Part shown: one piece after another, positions 17,590 to 18,387 of the stretch
Layout: every line of letters starts with the position of its first letter
Position numbering within the stretch: position 1 is the first letter of the stretch
Source of the DNA: Eledone cirrhosa
Lineage: Eukaryota
Reading direction: 5' to 3'
NCBI GenBank assembly: GCA_964016885.1
Contig: CAXHJY010000860.1
Location: 186,001-250,000 of the forward strand
Length of the DNA stretch: 64,000 bases
Program-made: the position numbers and the translations under genes
The notes under the pieces: generated by a model
Databases searched by the model: none
What the model saw: only the letters and a program-made list of their open reading frames with translations
What the model was told of the DNA's origin: nothing

Positions 17590-17590
<1 letters not shown>

Positions 17591-17708
17591 AAGTTGTAAT
17601 AAAATGAAAACGAAATTTCATTTCTCACTCTTAGTACGGCACTTACTTAAATGTAAGTATGTATGTATACGTACATACATATATGTATACAGACGTACAG
17701 TAGCATGC

Positions 17709-17749
<41 letters not shown>

Positions 17750-18387
17750 CAAGTACACATACATATATGTACGTATCAGTTTAGCGCACGTTTATTATAA
17801 CGCCCGCTATGTCCGTTTGTAAACAAACGAACAGCCTGATTTTATGCCGTACGGTGTTAAGGCAACCACGTCCCCTTTTTGTTCAACACTGACACATATA
17901 TGTATGTACGCATACATACATACTTACATTTAAGTAAGTGCCGTACAAAGAGTGAGAAATGAAATTTGGTTTTCATTTTATTACAACTTACCGTTTTCGG
18001 TGCGCCTGGCCGACTGAACTCACTCGATATGCAAATTAGGCTACTCAGCCGTTAATTTTCATAAGGAAAGTATATACTTTCGAACGTTCAACCATCTGGC
18101 AGAAGGGTATACGGTGCTGATGATAGCTAAGAAGCTTGAAACTAGTACATCGTTCCTGTGTCAGTGTTGAACAAAAAGGTGACGTGGTTGCCTTAACACC
18201 GTACAGCATAAATTCAGGCTGTTCGTTTGTTTACAAACGGACAAAGCGGGCGTTATAATAAACGTTCTCTAAACTGATACGTACATATATGTATGTGCAC
18301 CTGTATGTATATATATATATATATATGCATGCTACTGTACGTCTGTATACATATATGTATGTACGTATACATACATACTTACATTTA
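17590..18387 (+). mobile_element. Retrozyme-like insert: 455-bp terminally redundant unit with HHR, preceded by an inverted partial copy
   Basis: 17894-17932 recurs at 18349-18387; 17590-17895 is the reverse complement of 18159-18387 continuing into 17933-17990. Confidence 0.75.
18111..18153 (+). ncRNA. Minimal type I hammerhead ribozyme
   Basis: ACGGTG-CTGATGA-TAGCT AAGA AGCTT-GAAA-CTAG-TA-CATCGT. Confidence 0.85.

Follow-up and report, generated by a model that had tools for sequence, protein, structure and literature searches.

The closest described relatives of the locus analysed here are the metazoan non-LTR retrozymes (Cervera and de la Pena 2020, PMC7229834), whose units, according to the accessible text of that study, measure 150-450 bp and for which cleavage has been demonstrated, together with RNA circles in coral, mussel and axolotl. 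Two axolotl ribozymes in the same source are of structural relevance, HHR_Amex1 having a one-pair stem III with a palindromic tetraloop and HHR_Amex2 a U.U at the base of stem II. Its main text mentions neither 'inverted' nor 'octopus', and its supplement may show further invertebrate examples. In the accessible sections of a 2020 review, animal retrozymes are described as having no conserved motif that points to a mobilising retrotransposon (PMC7761336). A Penelope-like element (PLE) as partner is proposed in a preprint by Li, Clavereau and Pollet 2026 (bioRxiv 10.64898/2026.07.22.740005), which in its available text makes the case from homology in frogs, draws on co-occurrence and pLTR homology, covers vertebrates, insects and a coral and no mollusc, gives units of 51-972 bp and finds solo 'monomers' to be common. 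Mobilisation of retrozymes by PLEs has hence already been proposed, and the element class is known and common. EN+ PLEs themselves, as far as the available text of three studies describes them (PMC8557442, PMC3846280, PMC11167929), form partial tandems with an inverted, 5'-truncated head-to-head copy and a tail at one end, cause target duplications, insert into (TA)n or AT-rich targets and carry type I hammerheads; the tail measures 30-40 bp with a bias of insertion towards microsatellites (PMC8557442), the structures are flanked by duplications of 8-10 bp (PMC3846280), and in vitro the tail corresponds to the distance between two internal starts of reverse transcription (PMC11167929). In the literature searched, outside of which lay most subscription papers and the Repbase/Dfam entries, no cephalopod retrozyme and no retrozyme with inverted arms was found.

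The window, by which is meant the whole 64-kb stretch of DNA analysed, is AT-rich, microsatellite-laden animal DNA, and in it a 794-bp insert (17592-18385) lies within a (TA)n tract and is composed of an inverted arm, 1.08 forward units of 455 bp and one type I hammerhead (Table 1). The 455-nt unit (17894-18348) has a GC content of 37.8%, and its start is repeated at 18349-18391 with 41 of 43 positions identical, or 38 of 39 over the first 39, as described in the initial annotation of this DNA. This terminal redundancy is not LTR-like, since the copy is 1.08 units long and its start was set by the inversion junction. The inverted partial copy reported on the 5' side was likewise found: read in reverse complement, the arm at 17590-17896 corresponds to 18157-18348 and then 17894-17990, and it differs from the forward copy by 11 substitutions in 289 aligned bases and by an 18-nt TA expansion. 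In both the forward copy and the arm, the unit end is joined directly to the unit start, head to tail, with no coding DNA between them; when two units are read in succession, the longest ATG frames amount to 42 aa (+) and 66 aa (-), with no protein frame, and no frame with reverse transcriptase (RT) plus GIY-YIG is present in this two-unit read. Flanking the insert is a 12-bp direct repeat (17580-17591 and 18386-18397), which the initial annotation had missed. When position pairs were drawn at random from the TA tract, a fraction of about 0.004 yielded a repeat of this kind, a test that followed the sighting; counting both copies, 5 occurrences of the 12-mer are present in 9,640 nt of tract around the insert. 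The repeat is likely to be a target-site duplication.

Table 1. Features of the 455-bp insert and of its sister element, with positions in the window
Feature	Position	Strand	Remarks
Left 12-bp direct repeat	17580..17591	+	longest repeat at both boundaries; last 2 nt fit the arm as well
Inverted 5'-truncated arm	17592..17896	-	monomer +10 to +296 from cut site; without ribozyme core
Head-to-head junction	17894..17896	.	3 nt common to arm and forward copy
Forward copy	17894..18385	+	492 nt = 1.08 units; cut site crossed intact
Small predicted hairpin	17921..17936	+	forward 3' end (18385-18387) and 467 arm end map to loop and 3' side
Predicted helix strand	17938..17946	+	pairs with 18201-18209; two both-sided changes vs 467 unit; mismatch at 18205 private to forward copy
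Predicted domain	17950..18025	+	closed by GAGTGA/TCACTC, two inner hairpins; arm 3' end (17988-17990) in linker between
Most conserved module	18028..18063	+	12-nt and 11-nt runs identical in both families; predicted one-mismatch hairpin; contains ATGCAAAT
Predicted extended stem I with ribozyme at tip	18086..18172	+	z -3.2, 0/200 shuffles; 467 counterpart z -6.3
Type I hammerhead	18111..18153	+	stem I 18111-16/18148-53 (6 bp), core 18117-23, cut after 18147
Hammerhead stem II; GAAA; palindromic stem III	18124-37; 18138-41; 18141-46	+	U.U at base of stem II
Three predicted hairpins 3' of ribozyme	18176..18270	+	each with 467 counterpart; third counterpart seen in one comparison only
Long TA-rich predicted hairpin across nominal unit end	18278..18363	+	
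Repeat of the unit's first 37 nt (terminal redundancy of the initial annotation)	18349..18385	+	
Right 12-bp direct repeat	18386..18397	+	pair of the 17580..17591 copy
Sister 467-bp element	61941..64000	.	inverted arm 61941-62579 with one ribozyme, then 3.0 forward units, cut by the window end

Judged by the features tested, the insert belongs to the animal non-LTR retrozymes, of which it is a decayed solo copy; self-cleavage and circular expression are predicted properties. The assignment to a retrozyme-type element made by the initial annotation is borne out by the intact type I hammerhead core, the short non-coding unit, its GC content and the head-to-tail junction. In comparison with the retrozymes in the accessible text of PMC7229834, the insert is similar in being non-coding with a GC content of 38% and a type I hammerhead, in its highly self-paired predicted monomer, in a target duplication exceeding 4 bp (12 bp here) and in the presence of PLEs in the same genome; it differs in a unit of 455 nt, slightly longer than their 150-450 bp, in the single ribozyme of the locus and in that circles and cleavage, demonstrated for the former, are predicted here. 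In the available text of Li et al. 2026, an 'active' locus has two or more units in succession whose ribozymes are complete, and the single-ribozyme locus fits their 'monomer' class instead.

A scan for hammerhead cores returned 14 in the 64-kb window, one of them at this locus, and 0 in each of 30 block-shuffled windows. The stem III of the 455 hammerhead has one pair and is closed by a palindrome, with a computed self-duplex of -4.8 kcal/mol, and GAAACTAGT at 18138-18146 is identical in the 467-bp unit, in accordance with the matching stem III of the initial annotation. Rfam at the gathering score gave 0 matches in the whole window, and its HH9 model reaches 18.1 bits on the 455 hammerhead, below the cut-off of 52; Rfam alone makes no call. 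At E up to 5, 61 matches were obtained at the locus, mostly of microRNA models on TA-rich parts and all sub-cut-off, and these were attributed to composition. Decay as the origin of the U.U at the base of stem II was rejected, because no variant occurs there among the 40 listed of 64 rows and an axolotl ribozyme has U.U as well. In the reads, T is found at 18114 (letters of loose ends) and G at 18150 (variant table), and if the two are linked, a G.U of stem I would become U.G.

The sister 467-bp element has a 2-nt overlap at its junction, a left end in (TA)n and a pure 467-bp tandem. Local alignment of the 455 and 467 units gave a score of 168, with a shuffle mean of 27.9, sd of 3.7 and maximum of 41 (n=300), and their global identity is ~59-60%, where shuffles reach 49% with the same scoring. 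When segments were scored separately under strict scoring, the observed score was reached by 0 of 1000 shuffles for the 5' module, taken without the ribozyme or the TA-rich part, by 0 of 1000 for the TA-rich part and by 1 of 1000 for the ribozyme segment; sequence similarity is weak in the part 3' of the ribozyme, whose score was reached by 95 of 1000 shuffles under strict and 3 of 1000 under soft scoring. Homology to the 467-bp unit and the matching order of modules, both put forward in the initial annotation, are thereby upheld. The TACAAA match that it cited does not stand up, since it is partly a private change: the arm and ~99% of family depth read T at 17947. Membership in the 'same family' does not hold, as the identity of ~59% lies below the 90% clustering and 80% homologue thresholds in the available text of Li et al. 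2026 and short of 80% identity over 80% of the unit, so that the two are sister families and not one family. A profile of both units found no third member within the window.

Agreement between the two units extends to their predicted structures, and when each is folded by itself much the same succession of helices results. Unconstrained folds have 33, 89 and 94 of 154 pairs in common at tolerances of 0, 2 and 4 columns, compared with means of 9.0, 27.3 and 39.0 in a control with the same sites mutated randomly, in which 0 of 100 cases reach the observed values. In a MAFFT alignment, 90 of the 139 pairs of the 455 fold for which both rows have letters also pair in the 467 unit, and 17 of these 90 (11 outside the ribozyme) have changed on both sides, as against 1-5 when partners are slid by 1-3 columns, a comparison that takes its structure from the 455 unit and covers two lineages, and hence serves as support and not as a formal covariation test. 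Hand-registered helix counts, which had given 22 both-sided changes, were dropped in favour of the MAFFT-based ones, at least one register being off by one. The + strand of the 455 unit folds better than the - strand (z -5.3 vs -3.4, linear). On these models, 455 and 467 are sister families with one predicted fold, whose agreement goes beyond what ~59% identity explains. The initial annotation had staked its proposal on alignment or covariation outside the hammerhead core, and compensatory changes are indeed found there.

Sequencing reads were compared at 82% likeness in 4 of the 23 listed runs (X1, X9, X21 and X4), the 17 small-share runs being left out save X4 and X9. Family records amount to 4003 contigs in X1, possibly the source sample, and 61 in X9; in the RAD run X21, which has the same organism label, 64,287 of 12.47 million reads belong to the family, and 50 contig records come from X4, which has another organism label. 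No RNA run was among those listed for the sequence, which has no bearing on expression. The read layout covers the unit interior, both unit ends being skipped as repeats, and its depth sums do not equal copy numbers. The 455 family is multi-copy, and most of its variants leave the predicted pairs intact: of the 40 variants listed out of 64, 24 lie at unpaired positions, 9 keep a pair and 7 break one, where 15.4 +- 2.3 pair-breaking variants were expected (P 0.0004; 20,000 draws), the variants being unphased, not independent and distributed in subfamilies. None of the 40 affects the 11 fixed positions of the hammerhead core, a count that is weak alone, and the free N7 varies. The arm agrees with the family at 17947, 17968, 18205 and 18268, where the forward copy has bases of its own; two of these private bases disrupt predicted helices, in line with decay following insertion. 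AATT sites coincide with read ends at 17963-66, 18034-37, 18054 and 18214 and with ~26,000 loose ends at 18209-18211, and these ends probably reflect cuts of a restriction library and chimeras. A strand switch is seen in 13 of the 15 listed joints (of 75), with 5 of the 13 using 18225, beside an AATT site, and 12 coming from the restriction library; the one from another run is an X1 contig joining 18067 and 18191 with a 4-nt overlap. These joints are weak as evidence, their orientation not being given and one library being dominant.

With numbering from the cut site, the forward copy extends from +202 across that site to +238 of the following unit and the arm from +10 to +296, so that both outer ends of the insert are 3' ends, 58 nt apart. 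In the 467 element the outer arm end is at +232-234, after a TTTA aligned with the 455 forward end, and the two elements thus end at one shared aligned position. Two X9 contigs leave the unit near the second end (loose end at 17972) and pass into a TA run, a hint that the second 3' end recurs across copies. The same window contains a 5'-truncated coding PLE fragment at 11843-13510 (-) with a YVDD motif and an RT plus endonuclease-like frame, whose relatives show weak RT and GIY-YIG matches below the Pfam cut-offs. This fragment has a head-to-head inverted copy of its own 3' end, reaching ~55 nt past the forward end, and TA-rich microsatellite at both ends. Measured between 3' ends, the stagger is 58 nt in the 455 insert; the coding PLE fragment has ~55 nt, a further ribozyme family of the window ~90 nt. 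A PLE reverse transcriptase is the likely mobiliser of the 455 element, because it has the footprint layout of the coding PLE fragment and terminates at an aligned position shared with the 467 element. As a Penelope-like insertion pattern, this layout had gone unnoticed in the initial annotation.

A second PLE-type fragment, at 7324-8508 (+) and with a stop between 8022 and 8023, has a GIY-YIG match in 1 of 26 frames scanned (E 0.00018, just under the cut-off). The best match of a retroelement frame in the window is a protein labelled Octopus vulgaris, with 65% identity, which makes a cephalopod the likely host, although the species is not fixed by a transposon match. Near 12033 in the coding PLE fragment lies a hammerhead-core-like stretch whose stem I is not evident. 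When the 455 and 467 units were compared with the 3' regions of both PLE fragments and with five other ribozyme elements of the window, scores stayed in the shuffle range, and no autonomous partner PLE with a pLTR matching either unit was found within the 64 kb. The case made by Li et al. 2026, in its available text, draws on co-occurrence and pLTR homology, in contrast to the insertion footprint used here, where pLTR homology is absent within the window. The footprint resembles that of the EN+ PLEs introduced above in its partial tandem, inverted truncated copy, tail at one end, target duplication, AT-rich target and type I hammerhead, and differs in the absence of an RT/endonuclease frame from the 455 element and in a stagger of 58 nt instead of 30-40 bp; compared with the anole PLE in the accessible text of PMC11167929, the 455 3' ends lie further out, ~240 and 297 nt past the cut site. 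The footprint of PLE insertion, seen here on a non-coding ribozyme repeat and again on a neighbouring coding PLE, constitutes a different kind of evidence, and two ~59%-identical families with one predicted fold and one shared 3' end would provide a small natural RNA substrate for the in vitro PLE assay already available.

The initial annotation had further taken the arm, which reads across the unit end into the unit start, as a sign of a circular or multimeric template. This argument fails, since the nominal unit boundary is where the inversion junction fell, mid-monomer, and the arm lies inside one monomer. A circle or an uncut multimer is nevertheless needed for the forward copy, with its 1.08 units and intact cut site, and for the 467 arm of 639 nt; between the two, sequence cannot separate. 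Precedents point both ways, in as far as the accessible text of the sources extends: the retrozymes of coral, mussel and axolotl form circles (PMC7229834), whereas insertion of the anole PLE proceeds without ribozyme cleavage, ribozyme mutants having no effect and uncut RNA being the dominant substrate (PMC11167929), and of 9 predicted Xenopus retrozyme dimers, 8 failed to cut in vitro (Li et al. 2026). A palindromic stem III predicts a dimer requirement (available text of PMC4209133), and the 455 copy with its one ribozyme is predicted not to release a monomer alone, which likely makes it a dead end.

In the reading preferred here, with a probability of about 0.75, the insert represents one solo member, slightly decayed, of a multi-copy family of non-coding repeats with a type I hammerhead motif, likely written into (TA)n by the RT and endonuclease of an autonomous PLE. 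Its history would begin with + strand transcription of a tandem parent locus, after which two hammerheads would pair via the palindromic stem III and excise monomers, to be closed into circles by a host ligase. A PLE protein would bind the folded RNA and nick both (TA)n strands 12 bp apart, with cDNA synthesis starting internally at two places, +238-240 and +296-298 relative to the cut site. One cDNA would proceed for 492 nt through the cut site, on a circle or an uncut multimer, the other for 287 nt, stopping 9 nt short of the monomer 5' end, and the two would be joined head to head over the 3-nt overlap. The circle step is the weakest link of this explanation, its chances being judged about even.

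A serious contender, held somewhat short of even odds, is PLE mobilisation from an uncut read-through transcript of the tandem array, with a slow or protein-dependent ribozyme and no circles; it departs from the preferred reading in the excision and circle step only, and part of the odds is common to both. The 455 forward copy and the 467 arm, which cross the cut site without a scar, are in keeping with such a transcript, as are the predicted helices, all of which can form locally in a multimer, and the precedent of the anole PLE, whose insertion is unaffected by ribozyme mutants, with uncut RNA dominant (accessible text of PMC11167929). Against this, the core is kept in both families with N7 as the sole varying core position among the 40 listed variants of 64, which suggests that catalysis matters, and the 455 arm, in contrast to that of 467, ends 9 nt from the start of a cut monomer. 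It appears improbable that the insert is a mere pLTR remnant of an autonomous PLE, like the other short ribozyme elements of the window, rather than a non-coding replicon in its own right: the direct joining of unit end to unit start in the forward copy and arm without coding DNA between, the short ATG frames of the two-unit read (given above) and the pure 467-bp tandem of the sister family all speak against a remnant, even though solo ribozyme pairs on opposite strands, 100-700 bp apart, are truncated PLEs in the accessible text of PMC4209133 and several such pieces occur in the window.

Very low probability is assigned to an origin at the DNA level, either as a MITE or fold-back element with terminal inverted repeats or as a satellite unit duplicated by template switching, which would account for the long inverted repeats, the AT-rich target and the short junction overlap; the inverted ends are unequal, staggered by 58 nt, the ribozyme is on one strand, selection on RNA is indicated by the G.U-tolerant and compensatory changes, and the better fold belongs to the + strand. 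Slightly lower still is the probability of a LINE-type enzyme acting by twin priming, which produces 5' inversions and longer target duplications. In the twin priming of L1, sequence upstream of the forward piece is inverted, not duplicated. In the 455 insert the 3' half of the forward copy recurs in the arm, which extends 58 nt beyond that copy's end, and no poly(A) tail is present, which weighs against such an enzyme more than the 5' inversion with its short overlap and the 12-bp duplication, or the naming of LINEs as candidate retrozyme partners in the available text of PMC7229834, weigh in its favour.

Returning to the preferred PLE-written repeat, two of the three longest runs identical between 455 and 467, of 12 and 11 nt, form the two sides of a single predicted hairpin. 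Its ATGCAAAT strand has no variant among the 40 listed of 64; given the base composition, one unit is expected to contain an octamer 0.03 times. Variants at 18057 and 18059 each make up ~48% of X1 depth, and if they are linked, the single mismatch of the hairpin would shift by two positions and not disappear. The hairpin pattern gave 0 matches in metagenome and viral contigs, and a bacterial promoter scan of the locus was discarded as irrelevant to an animal host. As a lead, the conserved hairpin may serve either as an RNA helix for protein binding or, at the DNA level, as part of a promoter. The promoter of newt satellite 2 reportedly contains an octamer. This satellite, for which the available text of PMC2220036, citing Coats et al. 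1994, gives an internal snRNA-type promoter, is a hammerhead-bearing tandem repeat, as is the sister 467 family, and differs in its length of ~330 bp and amphibian host, and in that ATGCAAAT of the 455 unit is a candidate promoter only. A bolder proposal, regarded as rather doubtful, would see in 455 and 467 cephalopod circular RNAs parasitic on PLEs, the 460-nt branched fold being a handle for the RT with two fixed starts and the invariant ATGCAAAT an internal snRNA-type promoter; if true, a retrozyme would have a nameable and testable partner class, start sites and a promoter.

The 14 hammerhead cores in 64 kb suggest that PLE remnants are very abundant in the genome. Four copies of a different short hammerhead family, in which stem II is long, lie at 6063 (-), 16506 (+), 29720 (-) and 29972 (+), with 3' ends at ~+45 or +134 from the cut site, the copies at 29720 and 29972 forming a head-to-head pair with a 17-bp minisatellite between them. 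Further type I cores ending in (TA)n are located at 1948 (+), 30624 (+), 31046 (+), 49322 (-) and 3346 (-), of which 31046 lies within a 374-nt near-palindrome and 3346 is doubtful. A ~200-bp repeat with a tRNA-like start by eye is present in three copies that are 92-95% identical (18579-18776, 30203-30414 and 61672-61883) and may resemble octopus SINEs. A dispersed repeat was observed at 39634-41130, 56415-56696, 59838-60684, 3460-3700, 6987-7165, 24376-24584 and 26809-26957, the tail of the first copy being amplified into a 76-bp minisatellite at 39902-41125, and a family of short repeats with internal inverted pieces lies beside TA runs at 2066-2470, 4237-4303, 27220-27348, 32096-32359, 43442-43601, 48569-48821 and 59148-59424.
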